64,000 nucleotides of DNA from Patescibacteria group bacterium. Its GTDB lineage: Bacteria > Patescibacteriota > Minisyncoccia > Phycocordibacterales > UBA9973. Each line of letters starts with the position of its first letter. Positions within the stretch are counted from its first letter, which is position 1. The stretch is from assembly GCA_038078255.1 (NCBI GenBank), contig JBBUEH010000002.1, positions 7,534-71,533 on the forward strand, written 5' to 3'. Both the position numbers and the translations under genes were made by a program. Below the pieces are notes generated by a model. That model saw only the letters and a list, made by a program, of their open reading frames with translations, had not been told where the DNA came from and did not search any database. Shown in pieces: positions 6,792 to 20,775 of this stretch.

Positions 6792-7079
6792 TTATTTTGT
6801 AAACTTAAATGTAGAAAGAATTTGATCAGCTTTCTCAAAAGAACCGCTAACAGAAACCATAAATCCATCACCGTTTTTATTAAAAACAGCTGGTTGTGTT
6901 GTTGCTTGAGTTGTTGGCTTTGTTTTCTGTAACCAAACAAAATAACCTGTTATCCCCAAAAGTACAACCAGCACCCCAATGAAAACTAGACTAGTAAAAC
7001 CTTTTTGATTATTTTTCATATTGTTTTTGGTTATGTCATTATTGGGCTTATAAAATAATGCTATTTTTAGACTTGACAC
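6792..7079 (-). CDS. small membrane/secreted protein ending in ...ILSTFKFTK (short paralog of the 211-aa protein at 11722-12357)
   Basis: N-terminal transmembrane helix. The C-terminal nonapeptide is shared with ORF 11722-12357, and the nucleotide junction TTTACAAAATAA..(A/G)TGAATTC is duplicated at both loci. Confidence 0.4.
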   Translation of the reverse strand: MSSLKIALFYKPNNDITKNNMKNNQKGFTSLVFIGVLVVLLGITGYFVWLQKTKPTTQATTQPAVFNKNGDGFMVSVSGSFEKADQILSTFKFTK

Positions 7080-7133
7080 ATACTCGACATTTGCTATACT
7101 TTACTCGTAAATGCTTTCCTTGTCGAAAGCTCC

Positions 7134-7158
7134 GAGAAACCCCCGAAAGGGGGTTTCG
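7134..7158. terminator. GC hairpin GAGAAACCCCC-GAAA-GGGGGTTTCG with flanking T-run; a repeat copy occurs at 11286-11312
   Basis: Perfect 9-bp stem directly 3' of the MazF-like gene 7163-7564 (minus strand). It is about 90% identical over about 35 nt to the element at 11268-11330. Confidence 0.55.
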
Positions 7159-7162
7159 TATT

Positions 7163-7564
7163 TTATACAATCTTACCTATTTTTACTTTTATCTCTTTTA
7201 ACTCTTCGTTCTCTATTTTACCCATAAGTCTTAATAATCTTTTTGCGTCAAAAAGTCTAACTTGCGAAAGTATTACCGTTGAATCAGAAAAAGAAATTAA
7301 TCTATGATAATATTTTCCATCTTTATTTTCATTTGAAGTTAAAGGAACTCCTAAAAATATATTATTGTTAAACTTTCTTACAATAAGAATTGGTCTTTCA
7401 AAAGTAGAATTTTTACCATCTTCTTCGTCTCCTATATTTTTACCTATTGATGTAAACCATACATCGCCTTTATGGAAATAAGCTCTTTTAGCTAAAGATA
7501 ATTGTTTTTTATTAATATTCCAATCATCATATTCTTTTTCCATATTTTTATTATCAGGAAACAA
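7163..7564 (-). CDS. MazF/PemK/EndoA-like endoribonuclease (toxin-fold) paralog 1, no cognate antitoxin gene
   Basis: Aligns to B. subtilis EndoA and E. coli MazF along its length ([31 protein letters not shown] vs [59 protein letters not shown] vs VILLEQIRTIDKQRLTDKI..). It overlaps the rpoC stop by 11 nt if the first ATG is used; the alternative start is ATG at 7543. Confidence 0.6.
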   Translation of the reverse strand: [133 protein letters not shown]

Positions 7565-10500
7565 TATTCTTACTTTTAAACCCTGTCCCAGCCGGAATTA
7601 GTCTTCCAATTATCACATTTTCTTTTAGACCTCGGAGAGAATCCACGCCACCCTTGATGGCATTTTCGATCAGCACCCGGTTAGTGTTTTGGAACGAGGC
7701 GGCAGAGAGCCAGCTTTTAGTGCGTAGTGATACTTCCGTAATGCCCAGCACCACTGTTTCGGCTTTTGCTTCTTTTCCACCTGACTGTTCAATTCTGACA
7801 TTCTCTTCTATGAGTGAAGTATTTTCAACGATATCACCGATAGAAAAATTCGTATCGCCTGCATCTTTTATTTTTCGACGAGAAAACATCTGGCGAATAA
7901 TTATTTCTGTGTGCTTTCGAGAAATCGAAGCGCTTTGTAATTCATAAACTTTATTTATTTCACGAATGATATATTCCTCAACAAATTCTTTGCCACCCCA
8001 TTTAAAAATTTCAGCAATATCAGCAGAACCATCAGTCAGAAGCTCTCCCGCTCCAACACGATCCCCTACCTTAACAATAGGCACTCTACGAAAGGCTACT
8101 GTATATTCCATCTCGTTTGGTTTACCATCAACTTTTGTATCTGATAATATTTTGATTACCTTTTCTTTCCCACCTACTCCGCCAGAAGCTGAATCTTTGG
8201 CTGTGATAGAAATAACCTCTCCGTTGGTTTCGGAAATAATTGCCGGATTTTTAGGAATTCTTCTTTCAAATATTTCTTCCACCCGAGGTAGCCCAGTGGT
8301 GATGTCTGTGCCAGCCACTCCTCCAGCATGAAAGGTGCGAAGGGTGAGCTGAGTTCCCGGCTCGCCTATCGCTTGAGCGGCAATGATCCCCACAGCTTCG
8401 CCCTGCTCCACTAGGCGATTCCGCCCCAGATCCAATCCGTAACACTGAACGCAAAGTCCATGAACAGTGTGACAAGTCAGTGGAGAACGAACAAAAACTT
8501 CTGTGAAACCCGCTTCTTCAATGTTGTATGCTTCTTCTTTGGTCACTAAAAATCCTCTCTTATAAACAGTTTTACCATTTTTGTCTTTCAGGTCTCCTGC
8601 TAAGATGCGCCCTCGAATATTTTTGGAAAGCGGAATTTCAATTCCAGAAATATTTTCTTTCGAAACAATCTTCCCTTCTTTAGTACCACAATCTTCTTCA
8701 GTAACAACCACATCCTGCGCCACATCAACCAATCTTCGGGTTAAATATCCAGCCTTGGCAGTATTGAGCGCAGTGTCAGAAGCGCCCTTTCTAGCGCCAT
8801 GAGTAATAACGAAATATTCAATCGGAGAAAGCCCTTCTTGATAACAAGGAATAATCGGAAACTCCAGTGTCCTCCCTTGGTTGTTTTGAATAAGTCCAAT
8901 CATTCCCGTCATTTGCATCAGAGAGCTCATCGTCCCTCGAGCCTTCGAAGTAAATAAATCATAAGTGGAACCGTTTTTTTCAAGCGTATTAGGTAGAACT
9001 TTCTCTAAATTTTTCTTGGTATGTGTCCAAATTTCAATAATTTTTTGATATTTTTCTTCTTCGGAAAGCAGACCTTCGTTCCACTGTGATATTATATCTT
9101 CTTCCAGTTTTTTGCCCTGCGCTATAATTTTGGGTTTCTCGGGGGGCACCGAAACATTATCCAACCCCCAGGTTGTACCAGAAACAGTTGAATATTTAAA
9201 ACCAAAGGCCTTAATCTTGTCTAAAATAGCAGGGGTATCGTCTATGCCATATTGCATAATGAGCTCATCTAGGAGCATGGACAATCTACCTTGGGTCATT
9301 TCATCATTCACATAGAAAAAATTAGAGGGTAGAATACTGTTGAAAAGTAATTTTCCGACAGAGGTGTCAAAAATTTTTCCATTAAATTTTTTGTATTTAT
9401 CTGAATCTGTGGCTAGCACTTTTATCTTCGCTCGAAGAGATACCACTCCGTATTCGTAAGCCAGAATTGCTGTATTGGGATTCGAAAAGTATTTGCCTTC
9501 ACCCTGTTCTCCATCAATATCTTTCGTCATCCAATAAGAACCAAGCACGATGTCCATACTGGGATGCACTATCGGATCGCCATTTTGGGGCTTGAGCAGA
9601 TTCTTATTTGATGCCATCAAATCCTTGGCTTCTCGTTGCGCTTCTTCAAGGAGAGGCACATAGACTGCCATTTGGTCTCCATCAAAGTCAGCATTGAAAG
9701 CCTGACATACTAGGGGGTGAACCTGAATAGCATTTCCTTCAATCAAAATAGGATTAAAAGCCTGGATACCCAGACGATGCAGAGTCGGCGCGCGGTTCAA
9801 AAGAACGAATTTACCTTTAATCACTTCTTCTAAAATGGCCCAGATTTCTCCTCCTCTCTCTTCTATCAATTTATTGGCACCCCGAATATTGAAGGCCAGT
9901 TCGGCGTGTAAAATTTTCGAAATTATAAATGGTTTGAAAAGTTCTAGCGCCATGTGTTTAGGCAATCCGCATTGATTTAATTTAAGTTCGGGGCCAACCA
10001 CAATAACTGAACGACCAGAATAGTCCACTCGTTTCCCGAGCAAATTCTGACGGAAGAGTCCCTGTTTCGATTTCAAGTTATCGGAAAGAGATTTCAACGG
10101 TCGTTTTTGAGACTGACTCATAGCGGCATTATCATTTTGTTTGGCAATAGAGTTGTCAATCAATGCATCCACTGCTTCTTGAATAATTCTTTTTTCATTT
10201 CGCAGAATAACATCCGGAGCGTTAATTTCTTTCAACTTCTTTAAACGATTATTTCTGTTGATCACTCGACGATAAAGATCGTTTAAGTCAGAGGTTGCAT
10301 GTCTCCCCCCGTCTAGCGCCACCATCGGACGAAGGACGGGCGGAATAACTGGAATAGTGGTTAAGAACATCCACTCGGGACGAATTCCCGCATAATTCAT
10401 CGCCCGAAGAAGCGAAAGCCTTTTTTGCAATTTTTCTTTTTCAGCCATACTGGCCTTCTCTAGCATTTTTTCGGTGTGAACTTTTAATTTGTTTAAATCA

Positions 10501-11174
10501 AGATTTTTAAAAATAGAATAGATCGCTTCAGCGCCAATGTTGGCTTCAAAGCAAGTTCCGTATTTCAAAGAATAATGATGAAAAGAAATTTCATTAAGCA
10601 CTTTCCCTTCGTAGATTTCTCCAATTTCCTTTTTCGTAATGGAAAGTAAATTTTTCAATTTCTCTCGGGTATCGTCATCATTCGCATTTTTTAACTTCGC
10701 TTTGTATTCTTTATCTAAACCGGTCATTAATTTTTCTTTTTCTTCTTCGTGCACACGAGTTATGATGTAACCAGCAAAATATATTACCTTTTCAAGGTCC
10801 GAGACAGAAATGTTCAACAAGATGCTCATTCGAGAAGGCACCCCCCTTAAGAACCAAATATGCGACACCGGAGTAGAAAGTTCAATATGCCCCATTCGTT
10901 CTCGTCTGACTATCGAACGAGTCACTTCCACTCCGCATTTCTCGCAAATAATATCTTTGTAACGGATGCGGCGATATTTTCCACAATAACATTCATAATC
11001 TTTTTCCGGTCCGAATATTTTTTCATCAAAAAGACCCCCTCGCTCAGACCTCCCTGTACGATAATTTATCGTTTCGGGCTTGGTTACTTCGCCATAAGAC
11101 CATTCTTTAATCTGCTCCGGTGAAGCCAAACGAAGCGCAATACTATCAAAATCAGTGGTGTTTAAAGTTTTCAT
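7554..11174 (-). CDS. rpoC: DNA-directed RNA polymerase subunit beta'
   Basis: N-terminal Zn ribbon ([23 protein letters not shown]), [11 protein letters not shown] catalytic motif, 1206 aa. Confidence 0.95.
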
Positions 11175-11245
11175 GTTATTGTTTCTTTGCTTTTAATAAT
11201 AATTTCTTATTTTGTTAATCTACTCCACCTCCTTGACTTTTATAT

Positions 11246-11719
11246 TCATTGGTTTATACTATCCGTATTAGTGGCTTCGGCCTCCGAGAAAGCCCCCGCA
11301 AGGGGGTTTTCGATTTTAAGGAGATTTTGCAACATTATAATTACTTCTTTAAAATCTGCTTCAGATATAGAGCCTACTTTTCTTAACAATCTTTTTGTGC
11401 TTATTGCTTTTACTTGAGACAAAACAACCCAGGATTTTAACTCTGTATGATTTAGCTTAAAGTAATATTTATTATTTTTCCCTTGAGTTGTAAGTGGTAA
11501 CGCCCACACCATATCTGCATTAAATTTTTTTATAATTAACATTGGTCTTTCAAAGTTTTCATGTTTCCCATCTGATTCCACACCAATATTAAGCCCAGCG
11601 CTACACCACCATATTTCCCGAGCATAAAAGAAAAGCTCTGTGTTTACGCTTTTCGCATCTACAAACTTTTTCTCTATATTCCATTTATCAAAATCTTTTT
11701 TATATTCCATGGAATTCAC
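11246..11719 (-). CDS. MazF/PemK/EndoA-like endoribonuclease paralog 2 (GTG or ATG-11710 start), C-terminally extended by read-through into the hairpin element
   Basis: Clear paralog of 7163-7564 (W.I.KK, NIG.E.DGK..FERP.LI..KFN, PLT, KYY, VILSQV, KRLLR). Its C-terminal 20 aa (ENPLAGAFSEAEATNTD) are translated from the hairpin repeat at 11268-11330. Confidence 0.6.
   Translation of the reverse strand: MNSMEYKKDFDKWNIEKKFVDAKSVNTELFFYAREIWWCSAGLNIGVESDGKHENFERPMLIIKKFNADMVWALPLTTQGKNNKYYFKLNHTELKSWVVLSQVKAISTKRLLRKVGSISEADFKEVIIMLQNLLKIENPLAGAFSEAEATNTDSINQ
11286..11312. repeat. second copy of the GAGAAAGCCCCC-GCAA-GGGGGTTTTCG hairpin element (inside the 3' end of ORF 11246-11719)
   Basis: About 90% identical to 7118-7170 and in the same position relative to the MazF-like paralog. 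Confidence 0.55.
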
Positions 11720-11721
11720 TG

Positions 11722-12357
11722 TTATTTTGTAAATTTAAAAGTGGAAAGAACATCATCAAAATCTTGCCAAACTCGTTCGGTCTTACTATCTCCGCCAGTA
11801 TCCAACAAAAAGATCACTTTATTATTTTCAATAATTACTGTTTTCCCATAACCCAATCCCTCCCATGAATAACTAATGGCCTTATGTTCAGCCAAGGTTT
11901 TATTTTCAAAATCAGCAAAACCATCTCCATTATAATTTGAAAAACTTCTATTGTATTCATCTTCTGCCCAATCTATGAGTGAAAGTTGCTTAGAATTATC
12001 CCACACGCCTATACTTATACTTGATAAAGGACCATATCCACCCTCTCCAGGACCGATTGTTGTACTATCAAGGATCACTGTAAACAAGCTTCCTCGAACT
12101 GTAGACTTGTCAAAAATCCTAATTGTATAAACTGGTGGATAACTGAACTCAAATTTGTATTGATCATTTCTATATATTTGCCAAGTTGATGTTACATCCT
12201 GTCGTGGAAAATAAACTTTATTTATCGTACAATCACGTGTGTGTTCGCCAAAGAAAGGTGCATTGCAGGTTCCTCGAACACCCCAAACTCCAAGATACAC
12301 CAGAGCTAGTAAACCAAGTATTTGCATGTAAGGAATATTTTTAAAATAATTTTTCAT
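11722..12357 (-). CDS. secreted/membrane-anchored hypothetical protein ending ...VLSTFKFTK, inserted between rpoB and rpoC
   Basis: N-terminal signal/transmembrane segment (MKNYFKNIPYMQILGLLALVYLGVWGV). The C-terminal nonapeptide and downstream junction are shared with 6792-7079; an NGDGF motif is also shared. Confidence 0.45.
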   Translation of the reverse strand: MKNYFKNIPYMQILGLLALVYLGVWGVRGTCNAPFFGEHTRDCTINKVYFPRQDVTSTWQIYRNDQYKFEFSYPPVYTIRIFDKSTVRGSLFTVILDSTTIGPGEGGYGPLSSISIGVWDNSKQLSLIDWAEDEYNRSFSNYNGDGFADFENKTLAEHKAISYSWEGLGYGKTVIIENNKVIFLLDTGGDSKTERVWQDFDDVLSTFKFTK

Positions 12358-12367
12358 ATTTTTTCAA

Positions 12368-15300
12368 TTAATTTTTCCCTGATTTTCTAAGATCGACATC
12401 CAGCGCCAAGCCCCGCAGATAATTTAGAAGCACATTGAACGAGGCGGGAGAATTCGGCGGTCGAATCGTTTCATTTTTAATAATGGAATCAAAGGTTGCT
12501 GATCGGCCTTGAATGTCATCTGATTTAATCGTCAGCATTTCACGCAAAGTATAAGCCGCCCCATAACCTTCGAGCGCCCAGACTTCCATTTCTCCAAATC
12601 TCTGTCCTCCGCCTTGAGCTTTTCCGCCCAAGGGTTGCTGGGTAATGAGAGAGTAAGGACCAATCGAACGCATATGAATTTTATCCTCTACCATGTGATG
12701 CAGTTTAAGCATGTACATATATCCTACTGCGACATCTTGCTCGAAAGCCTCCCCCGTCCGTCCATCAAAGAGTTTCACTTTTCCAGATTCTGGCAGTCCC
12801 GCTTTTACTAATTCTTCTTTTATTTCTTCGTGCTTCGCTCCCAGAAAGGGCGGAACGATAGCCTGATAACCCAAACTATTCGCCGCCATCCCAAGGTGCA
12901 TTTCTAAAATTTGCCCCAAGTTCATCCGAGAAGGAACACCAAGGGGTGAGAGAATAATATCAACCGGTGTGCCGTCAGCAGTGTAAGGCATGTCTTCTTC
13001 TGGTAAAATCGTGGAGATCACCCCCTTGTTCCCATGTCGTCCAGAGAGCTTGTCTCCGACTGAAATATTTCTAATCTGCGCCACTTCAATCACGATTTTT
13101 TTTATAATTCCCGCTTCCAGCGAATGTCCCAGATCACGAGAAAAGATCTTTACCCCAATAATTCTTCCTCGTTTGCCATGTTCCATTCGAAGCGAAGTAT
13201 CTTTCACATCCCGAGCTTTCTCCGCAAAGATTGAACGAAGCAATCGTTCTTCGGGAGTCAGTTCCGTTTCACCTTTAGGAGTAATCTTGCCCACCAAAAT
13301 ATCATTTTCCCGAACCTCTGCTCCAATACGAACGACGCCATCTTCATCCAGATCTTTCAATTTTAATTCTCCGACATTCGGTATATCTCGAGTAGTAATT
13401 TCAGGTCCCAACTTTGTATCCCGAACGACGGAAGTAAATTCTTCAACATAAACAGAAGTGAATTTGCTCTTTTTAACCAGTCGTTCCGAAACAATGATCG
13501 CATCTTCGTAAGTTGATCCAGACCAAGACAAAAAAGCCACAAAAATATTCTGACCCAAGGAAATTTGTCCACCGACTGTACTGCTAGTGTCTGCTAAGAC
13601 GGCCCCTTTCTTTATTTTGTCGCCGACATCCACAGAAGGTCGTTGATGAAACACAGAAAAGTTGTTATTCCGTATAAAATTTACTAAAGAATAAGTCTTT
13701 TCCGTTTTTCCTTTCACCACAATTTTTTTCGCATCTAAATACGAGACCACACCATCTTCTTCTGCTAAAATCAATCGCCCAGAATCTCGGGAAGCTAACT
13801 CTTCCATCCCTGTCGCCACCAAGGGCGCTTCGGGGAGAACACAAGGCACCGCTTGCTTCTGCATGTTTGATCCCATTAGAGCGCGATTGGCATTGTTGTG
13901 TTCTAAAAACGGAATCATCGAGGTCGCAATAGAGAAAGCTTGGTTGGTCGCCACATCAATAAAGTCCACTTCTTCCCGAGCGACAGTACCCGGTTCTGTT
14001 TTAATTCGAGCTTCTACTTTTTCCTCGGTTATTTTGCCATTTTCATCATAGGGAACCCCCGCATGCGCAATATTATATTTTTCTTCCTCCAGCGCATTCA
14101 GATACACCACCTCTCCAGTCAATTTCCCATTCTTCACCTTGATATAAGGAGTTTCAATAATTCCAAATTCATTTATTTTGGCATAAGTAGATAAGTGCAG
14201 AATCAGTCCAATGTTCGGACCTTCAGGAGTATGAATCGGACACACTCTTCCATAGTGCGAAGGATGCACATCCCGAACTTCGAGCCCTGCTCGTTCCCGA
14301 GTCAATCCGCCGGGGCCGAGCGCCGAGAGCTGTCTAATGTGCTCTGTTTCCACCAACACATTTTCTTGATTCATAAATTGAGAAAGCTGGTTGGTAGTGA
14401 AAAATTCTTTGATACGAGCTTGGAGTGGTCGCTGGTTGATAATAGCGATAGGCATCGCTGTATCCACATCAATAATAGACATTCTGTCTTGAACATTTCT
14501 CTTGATCTGCATCATACCCGTACGGACTTTCTGTTGCAGTATTTCACCCACAAATCGCACCCGCCTCTGACCCAAATGGTCAATGTCGTCGCTCTTTGCT
14601 CCTGGAGTATTGTTCAAAGAAATAATGTGCATGATGACAGTGGCTAGATCTTCTTTAGAAATAGTACGACGAAGAAGAGCTTGTTCATCCATGGGCTTAT
14701 TAAATCGCTGATTAAATCTAAATCTACCAACCGGAGAAAGGTCATATCGCTCAGCGGTAAACAAAGAATCAATAAATTCTTTAGCATTATCAGCTGTGGC
14801 CATATCTCCATCTCTGAGACGCTTATATATTTCTATATAGGCATCGTTTATATTTTTTAGTCCATCTTTCGCCAAACAAATCTTTATTGTTTCTTCAAAA
14901 TTCGAACTTAATTCTGTTTTACCACTGAATGCCTTTAAAATAGCTTCATCCGTCTCATAACCCATCGCCCGCAGGAGCGCAGTTGCGGGGAATTTTCTTT
15001 TTTTATCTATTCTGATATAAATTGCCCCATCAGATTCGGACTCTATCTCAATCCAAACTCCCCGAGCTGGAATAATTTTTGCTCCAAAATATCTGTTCCC
15101 CTTACTTTCGGATTCAGTAAAGAAAACTCCGAAGCTTCTCGCTAGTTGTGGAACGATGACCCGCTCTACGCCATTGATGATAAAAGTCCCATGCGAAGTC
15201 ATTAAAGGAAAATCCGACATGAAAATTTCTTGCTCCTTCACTGTGCCTAAGATTTTATTAGTCAATTTTACCCGCGCTTTCAACTGCCCCTGATAGGAGA

Positions 15301-15547
15301 GCTTATTTATTTTTGCATTATTTTCGTCTTGCTTAGACTCACCTAGTGTGAAAGAAGTAAATTCCAGTTGAAATTTCTTGGAAGAATAATCACTAATGGG
15401 AGAAAATTCTTTTAAAACTTCGCCGATGCCGATCTCGGTCAGCCACTTGAAACTCTTGACTTGAGCTTCAATTAAATTAGGAAATTCCACGAGGGGCTTT
15501 TTATACCTCCCAAAATATTTCTTCGGACGCTTTGTATCTATATGCAT
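12368..15547 (-). CDS. rpoB: DNA-directed RNA polymerase subunit beta
   Basis: GDKLSGRHGNKGVIS and other conserved RpoB blocks; 1059 aa. Confidence 0.95.
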   Translation of the reverse strand: MHIDTKRPKKYFGRYKKPLVEFPNLIEAQVKSFKWLTEIGIGEVLKEFSPISDYSSKKFQLEFTSFTLGESKQDENNAKINKLSYQGQLKARVKLTNKILGTVKEQEIFMSDFPLMTSHGTFIINGVERVIVPQLARSFGVFFTESESKGNRYFGAKIIPARGVWIEIESESDGAIYIRIDKKRKFPATALLRAMGYETDEAILKAFSGKTELSSNFEETIKICLAKDGLKNINDAYIEIYKRLRDGDMATADNAKEFIDSLFTAERYDLSPVGRFRFNQRFNKPMDEQALLRRTISKEDLATVIMHIISLNNTPGAKSDDIDHLGQRRVRFVGEILQQKVRTGMMQIKRNVQDRMSIIDVDTAMPIAIINQRPLQARIKEFFTTNQLSQFMNQENVLVETEHIRQLSALGPGGLTRERAGLEVRDVHPSHYGRVCPIHTPEGPNIGLILHLSTYAKINEFGIIETPYIKVKNGKLTGEVVYLNALEEEKYNIAHAGVPYDENGKITEEKVEARIKTEPGTVAREEVDFIDVATNQAFSIATSMIPFLEHNNANRALMGSNMQKQAVPCVLPEAPLVATGMEELASRDSGRLILAEEDGVVSYLDAKKIVVKGKTEKTYSLVNFIRNNNFSVFHQRPSVDVGDKIKKGAVLADTSSTVGGQISLGQNIFVAFLSWSGSTYEDAIIVSERLVKKSKFTSVYVEEFTSVVRDTKLGPEITTRDIPNVGELKLKDLDEDGVVRIGAEVRENDILVGKITPKGETELTPEERLLRSIFAEKARDVKDTSLRMEHGKRGRIIGVKIFSRDLGHSLEAGIIKKIVIEVAQIRNISVGDKLSGRHGNKGVISTILPEEDMPYTADGTPVDIILSPLGVPSRMNLGQILEMHLGMAANSLGYQAIVPPFLGAKHEEIKEELVKAGLPESGKVKLFDGRTGEAFEQDVAVGYMYMLKLHHMVEDKIHMRSIGPYSLITQQPLGGKAQGGGQRFGEMEVWALEGYGAAYTLREMLTIKSDDIQGRSATFDSIIKNETIRPPNSPASFNVLLNYLRGLALDVDLRKSGKN

Positions 15548-19951: not shown

Positions 19952-20055
19952 GTTTTATTAGTTATCCACAACTACTTGACTTTTTACTTAATTTTGCTAT
20001 TATGATCATGTCATTCGCAAAACGCCACGCTTCGTGGCGTTTTGTATTTATACTA

Positions 20056-20658
20056 CTAAACTTGCTTTTTTATCTGCATTTTCCAGTTATTTATCTCAAT
20101 AAGATTGACCTTACCCCTATTTTCATCTATCAACTTTTTAAGTTTTGTAGAAAATCTTTTTGTATTTATTCCTGGTTTCCTAACACCAGCATTAGAAGAC
20201 ACCACATAGACTTTTGTCCCTTTTTCTACTACTTTTCTTATTAGATATTCAAAATCACCATCACCTGTAAAAATAAGAAATTCTTTGTCGATTCCTGCTT
20301 CTTCCATACAATCCACAGTTAAGTCTACATCGCAATTAGATTTTCTATTGTAACCCATATCAACAACTTCGATATTATCTTTTCCACATTCAACACATTT
20401 TATGGAAATAGTTTTATCTGATTTTTTATAAGCAAAAACTGTTTTTGCCCTTACGATGCAACCATTCTTTGATAGAGTGTCAAATTCTTTAGCGGTTTCT
20501 GTATCCCCTTCATCAATACCTGAATAAAAGAAAATTTTCTCACAGTCCCATTTTTCTTTTAGATATTTACAGAGTTTATGCCAATCAACAATAAAACCCA
20601 ATAACTTTTGTGTAGTAGTGGCTGTGTTCTGAACATCTATAAAAGCGTATCTTTTCAT
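20056..20658 (-). CDS. NYN-domain (LabA-like PIN) putative RNase
   Basis: MKRYAFIDVQN..., DVDLTVD and FLIFTGDGDFEYLI motifs. The ORF is trimmed to the internal Met at 20658; the upstream track extension is implausible. Confidence 0.65.
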   Translation of the reverse strand: MKRYAFIDVQNTATTTQKLLGFIVDWHKLCKYLKEKWDCEKIFFYSGIDEGDTETAKEFDTLSKNGCIVRAKTVFAYKKSDKTISIKCVECGKDNIEVVDMGYNRKSNCDVDLTVDCMEEAGIDKEFLIFTGDGDFEYLIRKVVEKGTKVYVVSSNAGVRKPGINTKRFSTKLKKLIDENRGKVNLIEINNWKMQIKKQV

Positions 20659-20695
20659 ATAAAAATGATAGCACAAATTCAGGCACAAGCAAAAA

Positions 20696-20721
20696 ATCTC
20701 TGAGAACAAGTTCTCAGAGAT
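20696..20721 (-). terminator. Rho-independent terminator (minus strand): TCTCTGAGAAC-TTG-TTCTCAGAGA followed by TTTTTT
   Basis: 11-bp perfect stem with a U-run on the minus strand, downstream of the rpsP-KH operon and upstream of the NYN gene. Confidence 0.6.
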
Positions 20722-20775
20722 AAATTTGATAAAAAAACAAAAGAACATTTTGTTGCGGCCCCGTTAGGTCAGGTT

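Follow-up and report, generated by a model that had tools for sequence, protein, structure and literature searches.

Two MazF/PemK-fold genes flanking rpoC in a Patescibacteria genome and their convergent candidate small-RNA partners

A 64,000-nucleotide (nt) stretch of a Patescibacteria genome of the Nomurabacteria/Paceibacteria kind (GenBank assembly GCA_038078255.1, contig JBBUEH010000002.1, positions 7,534 to 71,533; hereafter, the window) carries two PemK/MazF-like genes, A and B, that flank rpoC. Each is accompanied at its 3' end by a compact unit on the other strand that we predict to encode a small RNA (sRNA-A and sRNA-B). The two loci comprise the following features, in window coordinates (ORF, open reading frame; aa, amino acids).

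7163..7564, minus strand: ORF-A, PemK/MazF-like; gene A is 7163..7543 from ATG 7543 (126 aa; stop codon, 7163-7165)
7554..11174, minus strand: rpoC, a 1206-aa ORF, given for context and outside the module
11246..11719, minus strand: ORF-B, PemK/MazF-like; gene B is 11246..11710 from ATG 11710 (154 aa as annotated)
7073..7100, plus strand: predicted sRNA-A promoter, TTGACA-16-TATACT with TG ahead of the -10 box (11/12 matches to the sigma-70 consensus)
7107..7164, plus strand: sRNA-A, ~58 nt predicted, with leader GUAAAU and tail GUAUUUU
7113-7130, plus strand: hairpin 1 of sRNA-A, GCUUUC-CUUGUC-GAAAGC
7131-7135, plus strand: UCCGA linker of sRNA-A
7136-7157, plus strand: hairpin 2 of sRNA-A, with a GAAA loop
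11233..11260, plus strand: predicted sRNA-B promoter, TTGACT-16-TATACT (10/12 matches to the consensus), in the 71-nt gap between gene B and rpoC
11267..11317, plus strand: sRNA-B, ~51 nt predicted, with leader AUUAGU and tail GAUUUU
11273-11282, plus strand: hairpin 1 of sRNA-B, GGC-UUCG-GCC
11283-11287, plus strand: UCCGA linker of sRNA-B
11288-11311, plus strand: hairpin 2 of sRNA-B, with a GCAA loop

On the strand opposite PemK, the units follow a single order (i.e., sigma-70 promoter, short leader, hairpin 1, UCCGA linker, GC-rich hairpin with a GNRA loop, and U-run). The -10 box lies ~12 nt ahead of hairpin 1, and roughly half of this distance would be leader if transcription started 6 to 7 nt past the -10 box. 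The sRNA-A promoter overlaps the start of an opposite-strand gene for a 95-aa membrane protein and is positioned relative to hairpin 1 as at other loci. The sRNA-A tail overlaps the stop codon of gene A (coding-sequence overlap, 2 nt), and sRNA-B lies within the last ~23 codons of ORF-B (about codons 131 to 154; overlap, ~70 nt of coding sequence). Each predicted RNA folds into exactly the two hairpins listed (minimum free energy [MFE], -24.3 kcal/mol and z = -4.3 for sRNA-A; -22.8 kcal/mol and z = -3.1 for sRNA-B). Homologues of sRNA-A with compensatory changes follow the A-type genes of three other loci (L007, L010, and L014), and the same convergent arrangement was present at every other PemK locus first inspected.

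The association was quantified among relatives sampled at one genome per GTDB species (430 relatives). The best 80 loci, which were examined, all came from Patescibacteria, and 70 of them carry the core RNA motif antisense to PemK; the other ten have diverged versions. A covariance model built from 58 units (model R1) was searched against 704 kb of Patescibacteria DNA from 84 sources (E <= 1e-5). It gave 83 matches, 81 of which have a convergent PemK ORF within 200 nt. The only two significant R1 matches in the window fall at sRNA-A (7105-7172; 43.9 bits; E = 4.8e-14) and sRNA-B (11265-11326; 77.3 bits; E = 2.5e-27). The pairing of sRNA and PemK runs through the whole Patescibacteria (Candidate Phyla Radiation [CPR]) group. 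An initial sequence-only reading of this DNA had described the two genes as lacking an antitoxin; that description must now give way, given the conserved convergent sRNA, a candidate antitoxin, at 81 of the 83 model matches.

No known RNA family accounts for these units. Only three tRNAs reached Rfam gathering scores in the window, and a search of 11150-11450 at E values up to 10 returned nothing relevant; no family reached threshold in Campylobacterota or Firmicutes relatives either. Weak matches to RAGATH-17, rli22, and a CRISPR-repeat family, in the window or in plasmid relatives, were at chance level and were rejected. Mimicry of the anti-Shine-Dalgarno sequence by CCUCC was also considered and discarded, as variants with a GCC-UUCG-GGC hairpin 1 lose the CCUCC.

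The predicted structure is retained across the family. In an alignment that had been fitted to the model, 97.1% of the alignment cells are paired, and 10 of the 12 pairs are changed on both sides (154 cells). Of 500 shuffles, none came up to the alignment in paired fraction, number of double-change cells, pair types, or covariation score, while six reached its number of pairs with a double change; alignments slid out of register were 42 to 65% paired. When the two strands were compared, 97.1% of the cells were paired on the promoter strand (i.e., antisense to PemK) and 92.7% on the toxin strand, with 44 G-U cells. The hairpin 1 loop is UUCG in 68 of the 83 matches, the second loop is mostly of the GNRA type, the tails read GAUUUU, and the single-stranded UCCGA linker is invariant across the family. 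Promoters with at least 10 of 12 sigma-70 matches precede 68 of 82 homologous units, and the -10 box ends 12 nt ahead of hairpin 1 in 63 of the 82. On the basis of the asymmetry in G-U pairing, the UUCG and GNRA loops, the GAUUUU tail, and the promoters, the predicted transcribed strand is the one antisense to PemK.

The RNA is conserved in sequence as well as in structure. In pairs of loci whose PemK proteins are 30 to 45% identical, four-fold synonymous sites are 33% identical (i.e., saturated), and the leader, hairpin 1, and linker of the RNA retain 82% identity, a figure that climbs to 99% in closer pairs. Since 82 to 99% identity persists where synonymous sites are saturated, purifying selection acts on the RNA sequence itself, unpaired positions included.

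These data bear on another explanation, namely, that the hairpin unit is a mere bidirectional intrinsic terminator or insulator and that the PemK proteins are true orphans, otherwise controlled or tolerated. Hairpin 2 is indeed a GC-rich element located at the stop codon and trailed by a U-run, and the two units of the window are embedded in a long co-directional operon, in which an insulator could be of use. However, termination alone would not call for a near-consensus promoter set at a constant distance, for another conserved hairpin, or for the invariant UCCGA linker, nor would it demand 82 to 99% identity at saturating divergence. The model matches are restricted to PemK 3' ends, not gene ends generally, and the sequence after the big hairpin on the toxin strand is CUCGGAGG instead of a U-run. 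We therefore consider this explanation decidedly unlikely.

The overlap of sRNA-B with gene B also explains a peculiarity of the protein records. Many B-type proteins end in KIE[NS]PLAGAFSEAEATN, and others in ...GGFLGGRSH or ...SRRPKP. These endings are the same ~50 nucleotides in all three frames, sometimes read past the stop codon. Because homologues read the same nucleotides in all three frames, the object conserved at the ORF-B tail is, by this comparison, a nucleic acid and not a peptide. A C-terminal peptide of ORF-B that acts as an antitoxin in cis or as a degron was rejected on the same pattern, with the nucleotides kept while the frame shifts (SEAEATN, LGGRSH, and SRRPKP). Database proteins (e.g., P0001-P0120) carry C-terminal extensions of variable length (SEAEATN.., LGGRSH, or SRRPKP) that we regard as spurious, gene callers apparently having read through the antisense RNA gene. 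The ORF coordinates of the sequence-only reading stand, with two amendments: the last ~23 codons of ORF-B are predicted read-through of the RNA gene, and the starts move to ATG 7543 and ATG 11710. Those starts are predicted from orthologue lengths (126 aa for the A type and 129 to 160 aa for the B type). The protein identical to the gene B product (P0001) has 154 aa, and an A-type orthologue (P0121) has 126 aa.

Both proteins match the Pfam family PF02452 (PemK_toxin; curated cutoff, 23.1 bits), with 41.4 bits for A (E = 1.9e-10) and 53.1 bits for B (E = 4.2e-14), and they share 40% identity over 128 aa (E = 4e-31). This profile search bears out the original assignment to a MazF-type family and not to a non-nuclease one. 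Since both score far below the cutoffs of the NCBIfam equivalogs for Escherichia coli MazF and ChpB, A and B are, by profile scores, divergent PF02452 members and not orthologues of E. coli MazF. AlphaFold (AF2) models built on homologue alignments contain an N-terminal helix, a MazF beta-core, and a C-terminal helix in both (mean predicted local distance difference test [pLDDT] scores, 83 for A and 76 for B); the helix spans residues 2 to 17 in the A model, and the tail of the B model has low confidence. A Foldseek search with the gene B model returned MazF-mt1, MoxT, Staphylococcus aureus MazF, and Bacillus subtilis YdcE/EndoA as the top PDB matches (probability, 1.0; TM-score normalized to the target, 0.7 to 0.79). 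Both proteins are thus predicted to have the MazF/Kid SH3-like barrel fold, and the view that two paralogues of this fold flank rpoC is upheld.

Among 84 sequences, R55 of B is invariant and T74 is at least 90% conserved, as are their equivalents in A (R50 invariant; T69 at least 90%). The family profile matches R55 and T74 to R25 and T48, the catalytic residues of B. subtilis MazF (1NE8/4MDX). PemK-A and PemK-B would be sequence-specific endoribonucleases that inhibit growth. The same profile places a five-residue insertion in the beta1-beta2 loop relative to solved MazF structures.

The subfamily is large and conserved. A search of 1.84 billion representative proteins with its profile gave 403 clusters (at 50% identity) with E <= 1e-30 and 1888 with E <= 1e-10. 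There are more than 240 A-type orthologues, mostly of 122 to 128 aa (126 being the commonest length), and for each paralogue the closest 120 homologues listed are 55 to 87% identical.

The N-terminal extension noted at the outset proved to be a family trait. In its motif, FDxWNxxKK, residues D8, W10, N11, K14, and K15 are each at least 90% conserved in the 84 homologues. Profile matches in solved MazF structures start at profile position 24 to 29 at the earliest, and later still in E. coli and S. aureus MazF. The extension is therefore conserved, predicted to be helical, and missing from canonical MazF. These properties would also suit a helix that lies in the MazE groove and holds the RNase inactive in cis until displaced or cleaved. 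However, with its W, K, and K residues, the helix has a basic and aromatic character, whereas the MazE tail is acidic. It also co-occurs with the RNA partner in every case, and therefore a role in RNA binding fits better. Inhibition in cis is unnecessary once the RNA partner is recognized, and we consider it very improbable.

No protein took the place of the RNA as a candidate antitoxin. Pfam and NCBIfam scans of the neighbors found no MazE/PemI-like gene or antitoxin domain next to A or B, as the sequence-only reading had stated, and clustering of all ORFs within 700 bp of 91 modules revealed no recurrent protein family. The largest neighbor groups were other PemK paralogues (9 modules), a membrane protein (8), rpoC (4), and dnaG (4). 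A distant conventional protein antitoxin might still neutralize both paralogues in trans; trans-acting antitoxins are known for some orphan toxins, and the 64 kb inspected is only part of the genome. However, the 91 modules, from many genomes, share no conserved protein neighbor, and the compact unit of PemK family plus RNA spreads on plasmids and a viral contig, which would be impossible with a distant partner. We give this alternative very little credence.

The genomic contexts of the modules are diverse. Close orthologues lie between TsaE and PolA genes, by genes for serine hydroxymethyltransferase (SHMT)/thymidylate synthase, near genes resembling those of type IV secretion systems (T4SS), and between rpoC and dnaG. 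With rpoC adjoining only 4 of the 91 modules, the position beside rpoC is an insertion site in this lineage and not a functional tie to RNA polymerase; the suggested link to RNA polymerase expression is abandoned. An addiction module that parasitizes an essential operon, another of the options first raised, comes closest to our results. Tandem arrays also exist. Four tandem PemK-like genes occupy 3.9 kb of a Kaiserbacteria contig (L057, 1-3867), and since R1 recognizes an sRNA beside just two of the four, other, more diverged RNA variants are likely to exist. We also asked whether A and B form an obligate pair or a heterodimer. Some genomes have them side by side (L001, L003, and L014), but the idea was rejected because many loci have a single module, L057 has four, and an RNA of its own accompanies each gene.

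Outside CPR, relatives that share the N-terminal motif are found on Nitratiruptor, Helicobacter, and Campylobacter plasmids (including pVir of Campylobacter jejuni), in Campylobacter CJIE4 prophages, and on Lactobacillaceae and Bacillaceae plasmids. They also occur on two IMG/VR viral contigs (host unstated), one of which carries a CPR-type RNA in the expected place. The N-terminal extension is covered by PHROG 9567, a "MazF-like growth inhibitor." In the three Campylobacterota plasmid loci that were read, a hairpin-rich stretch is convergent at the PemK 3' end, and a promoter was recognized by eye within it at the pVir and Nitratiruptor loci; model R1 detected nothing at the Campylobacterota plasmid loci. 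Among further plasmid loci (including L094, 1162-2477, and L096, 640-1920), the N-extended PemK homologue directly follows a DUF3800 gene in Lactobacillaceae, and repeated hairpin units lie downstream in Parageobacillus and Bacillus cereus. No Rfam family matched these Lactobacillaceae, Parageobacillus, or B. cereus loci.

Two further observations concern expression of the PemK genes. On a 755-kb contig (L003, 7481-8462), both PemK genes have TGA at conserved Trp positions, which looks like a code-4-like reassignment of TGA to Trp in a lineage with CPR-type modules. At several of the loci L012-L091, read by eye and uncounted, a -10-like sequence (e.g., TATAAT, TAGAAT, or GATAAT) ends ~6 to 8 nt before the PemK ATG, with no Shine-Dalgarno sequence, which suggests leaderless toxin mRNAs. 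The two copies in the window have no such upstream sequence and seem to depend on operon read-through.

In the reverse search, an exact 21-mer of the RNA retrieved 105 metagenome stretches, and 73 of the loci fetched had enough flank. An intact convergent PemK gene is present at 59 of the 73 and a decayed PemK remnant at 2. The orphan RNA copies among the rest suit a different explanation, in which PemK and the sRNA form a nontoxic ribonucleoprotein or enzyme-substrate pair with a housekeeping or regulatory role (i.e., a domesticated MazF); the protein might then process, protect, or be guided by the RNA. The 55 to 87% identity among the closest listed homologues is unusually high for a toxin, the family occurs in many Patescibacteria lineages with tiny genomes, and the RNA primary sequence is better conserved than the protein. 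Against domestication stand the variable copy number and tandem arrays, the variable genomic contexts, the decayed PemK remnants beside intact RNAs, the relatives on plasmids, prophages, and a viral contig, and the match to the PHROG growth inhibitor, all of which are typical of selfish or defense modules. On balance, a nontoxic pair seems unlikely to us.

We propose instead, with moderate confidence, that the MazF/PemK RNase gene and its convergent RNA probably constitute a toxin-antitoxin (TA)-like module with an RNA antitoxin, in which a type I layout is possibly combined with a type III mechanism. The proposal builds on the anatomy of the genes and RNAs, the structural covariation, the obligate association, the purifying selection at the RNA level, and the lack of a protein partner, which are established. 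In place of a protein antitoxin, an sRNA of ~50 to 60 nt would be made from its own strong sigma-70 promoter just past the toxin gene, be transcribed back toward the toxin, and end at the GC-rich hairpin that abuts or overlaps the toxin 3' end. Since no U-run follows the hairpin on the toxin strand, the toxin mRNA is expected to extend through the hairpin and to include a complete complement of the sRNA; for the two copies in the window, this mRNA would be the rpoB-to-rpoD operon transcript.

Neutralization could then take two routes, which can coexist. In a type I-like route, the sRNA/mRNA duplex and head-on transcription would lower toxin expression, both of which would follow almost automatically if the two RNAs are made. 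In a type III-like route, the RNA would bind the MazF dimer, and its UCCGA linker and leader would fill the RNA groove as a decoy. We favor the second route as an explanation of the sequence conservation, with the RNA acting at least partly as a decoy and antisense effects coming on top. Cis-antisense pairing needs no conserved primary sequence, yet the UUCG hairpin, UCCGA, and leader are near-invariant, which points to a trans-acting reader, for which the PemK dimer is the obvious candidate. Leaders ending in UUAGU accompany a G-V-E beta1-beta2 loop in 44 of 45 modules and those ending in AAAU a G-[DFYA]-E-[EQ]-DG loop in 10 of 10, a co-variation that rests on few clades and is phylogenetically confounded. 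This co-variation and the basic, aromatic N-terminal helix found subfamily-wide are consistent with PemK as the reader of the RNA.

Several points weigh against the proposal. We infer toxicity, neutralization, and the choice of mechanism, as well as transcription of sRNA-A and sRNA-B; the promoters, the terminators, and the RNAs themselves are predictions. The predicted pairing of the sRNA with the toxin translation start is no better for the cognate combination (-16.2 kcal/mol) than for noncognate (-15.5 kcal/mol) or shuffled (-16.2 kcal/mol) ones, and this lack of start-site complementarity rules out one type I route. By itself, hairpin 2 could serve as a terminator in both directions. Of the 73 loci retrieved with the RNA, about 12 have no PemK gene, the RNA lying beside NYN, ParE-like, rpoC, ClpS-like, or HAD genes; such RNAs fit orphan antitoxins but equally an RNA with a function of its own. 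PADLOC has no matching defense-system model for the locus. The fitting of the covariation alignment to the model and the narrow clade base of the leader/loop co-variation count on the same side.

The module resembles several known TA systems, each in part. With the type II systems MazEF, PemIK, and Kid-Kis, it shares the Pfam family PF02452, the fold, and equivalents of the catalytic Arg and Thr. In contrast to these systems, the modules here have no upstream MazE/PemI gene or conserved protein neighbor and have an RNA as the conserved partner, and the PemK proteins have the extra N-terminal helix and the five-residue loop insertion. An adjacent, co-transcribed protein antitoxin, the hallmark of type II, is absent, the neighbors being rpoC, a 211-aa secreted-type protein, and the 95-aa membrane protein.

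The type I systems txpA/RatA and bsrG/SR4 of B. subtilis have convergent antisense RNAs that overlap the toxin gene at its 3' end. The layout here is the same, with an sRNA directed toward the toxin from its own predicted promoter and overlapping or abutting its 3' end. However, the toxin here is a soluble MazF-fold RNase of 126 to 154 aa and not the small hydrophobic peptide of type I, and the primary sequence of the RNA is conserved across a phylum-level group, which simple cis-antisense does not require.

Type III systems include ToxIN, CptIN, and TenpIN, and the toxin ToxN is reported to resemble Kid/MazF structurally. These systems likewise pair an endoribonuclease toxin with a structured RNA inhibitor (here, a candidate), and single-stranded motifs could fill the active-site groove. 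The RNA here differs in being single-copy and convergent, and not a same-strand upstream repeat array. No processing step is needed. Between 6500 and 12600, a search revealed no ToxI-like tandem repeats; the toxin matches PF02452, and neither a ToxN-type Pfam family nor a PADLOC model was returned by the scans.

Two RNA-based precedents also bear comparison. The pemK RNA motif lies upstream of Firmicutes pemK genes and has a possible antitoxin role. It is likewise a conserved RNA structure associated with pemK genes that have no evident protein antitoxin, whereas the element described here lies in convergent orientation at the 3' end instead of in the 5' untranslated region and matches no Rfam family at threshold. 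The motif exists as an Rfam family (10.1101/2024.10.12.618037). For the C. jejuni plasmid pVir, a type I system, cjrA/cjpT, with an antisense RNA antitoxin (CjrA) and a protein toxin (CjpT) is on record (PMC10470494 and PMC7826846, citing Shen et al. 2016). The pVir plasmid carries a homologue of the PemK subfamily (WP_011117588; motif FDEWNEVKK), which may or may not be CjpT; if it is, the Campylobacter system would be an experimental precedent. A promoter-like sequence (TTGATT-17-TATAAT) and several hairpins are convergent at the 3' end of this gene, as read by eye without a scan. Unlike the CPR units, the Campylobacter RNA is undetected by model R1. The published pVir sRNA CJpv2 maps elsewhere on the plasmid, and a literature text search for cjpT returned nothing relevant.

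The remaining genes around the two modules are as follows.

12368..15547, minus strand: rpoB, part of a long minus-strand gene run
11722..12357, minus strand: 211-aa secreted-type protein, between rpoB and gene B
6792..7079, minus strand: 95-aa membrane protein, downstream of gene A

With both PemK ORFs flanking rpoC, rpoB and the 211-aa protein gene lie upstream, and dnaG and rpoD lie further downstream in the same minus-strand run. In this genome, rpoB and rpoC are split by two inserted genes (those of the secreted-type protein and PemK-B), while they directly overlap in a Zambryskibacteria relative (L004). The strong sRNA-B promoter is oriented against the rpoB-to-rpoC transcript. The C-terminal motif D.(I/V)LSTFKFTK is present in both the 95-aa (6792-7079) and the 211-aa (11722-12357) protein, as is a shared membrane segment at the N terminus; neither has a Pfam or NCBIfam match. 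The membrane protein family that adjoins 8 of the 91 modules is similar to these two.

The window contains five strong promoter-plus-terminator combinations, the three short ones being sRNA-A, sRNA-B, and a third unit that faces the 3' end of an NYN-domain RNase gene.

19976-20003, plus strand: predicted promoter of the third unit, TTGACT-16-TATTAT
~20017-20045, plus strand: hairpin of the third unit, 13 bp followed by a U-run (MFE, -20.2 kcal/mol; z = -5.8)
20056..20748, minus strand: NYN-domain RNase gene (PF01936; E = 8.9e-16), with its 3' end facing the third unit

At three other loci (L107, L126, and L147), an orphan PemK-type sRNA lies beside an NYN or ParE-like gene, and each of these genes has its own, different convergent promoter-plus-hairpin. 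These cases suggest a general design of RNase toxin plus convergent sRNA in CPR genomes. In its widest form, which we offer tentatively and with more doubt than conviction, RNase toxins of Patescibacteria (MazF/PemK, NYN, and perhaps ParE/RelE-like) would generally be under single-copy convergent sRNAs, and the PemK RNA would be a direct-binding pseudosubstrate decoy. If true, this would be a new TA architecture, with a type I layout and a type III mechanism, widespread in a poorly understood branch of bacteria, and the N-terminal helix of the toxin would be an RNA-recognition element.

Two copies of a compact protein-RNA module are inserted in the rpoB-rpoC-dnaG region of this lineage. What appears to be new is a MazF-family toxin with a phylum-wide, structurally defined, convergent candidate RNA partner, which would place a MazF-family toxin on the short list of toxins neutralized by RNA. 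The partner itself is a well-defined RNA family outside Rfam (~55 nt, with two hairpins and an invariant UCCGA linker). Its recognition accounts for hundreds of "orphan" MazF annotations in CPR genomes (the subfamily comprises 403 clusters at E <= 1e-30), and many database entries would owe their conserved C-terminal "tails" to read-through of the RNA gene. Given that the modules lie inside the rpoB-rpoC-dnaG-rpoD operon, the strong predicted antisense promoter may affect the expression of essential genes in this lineage.

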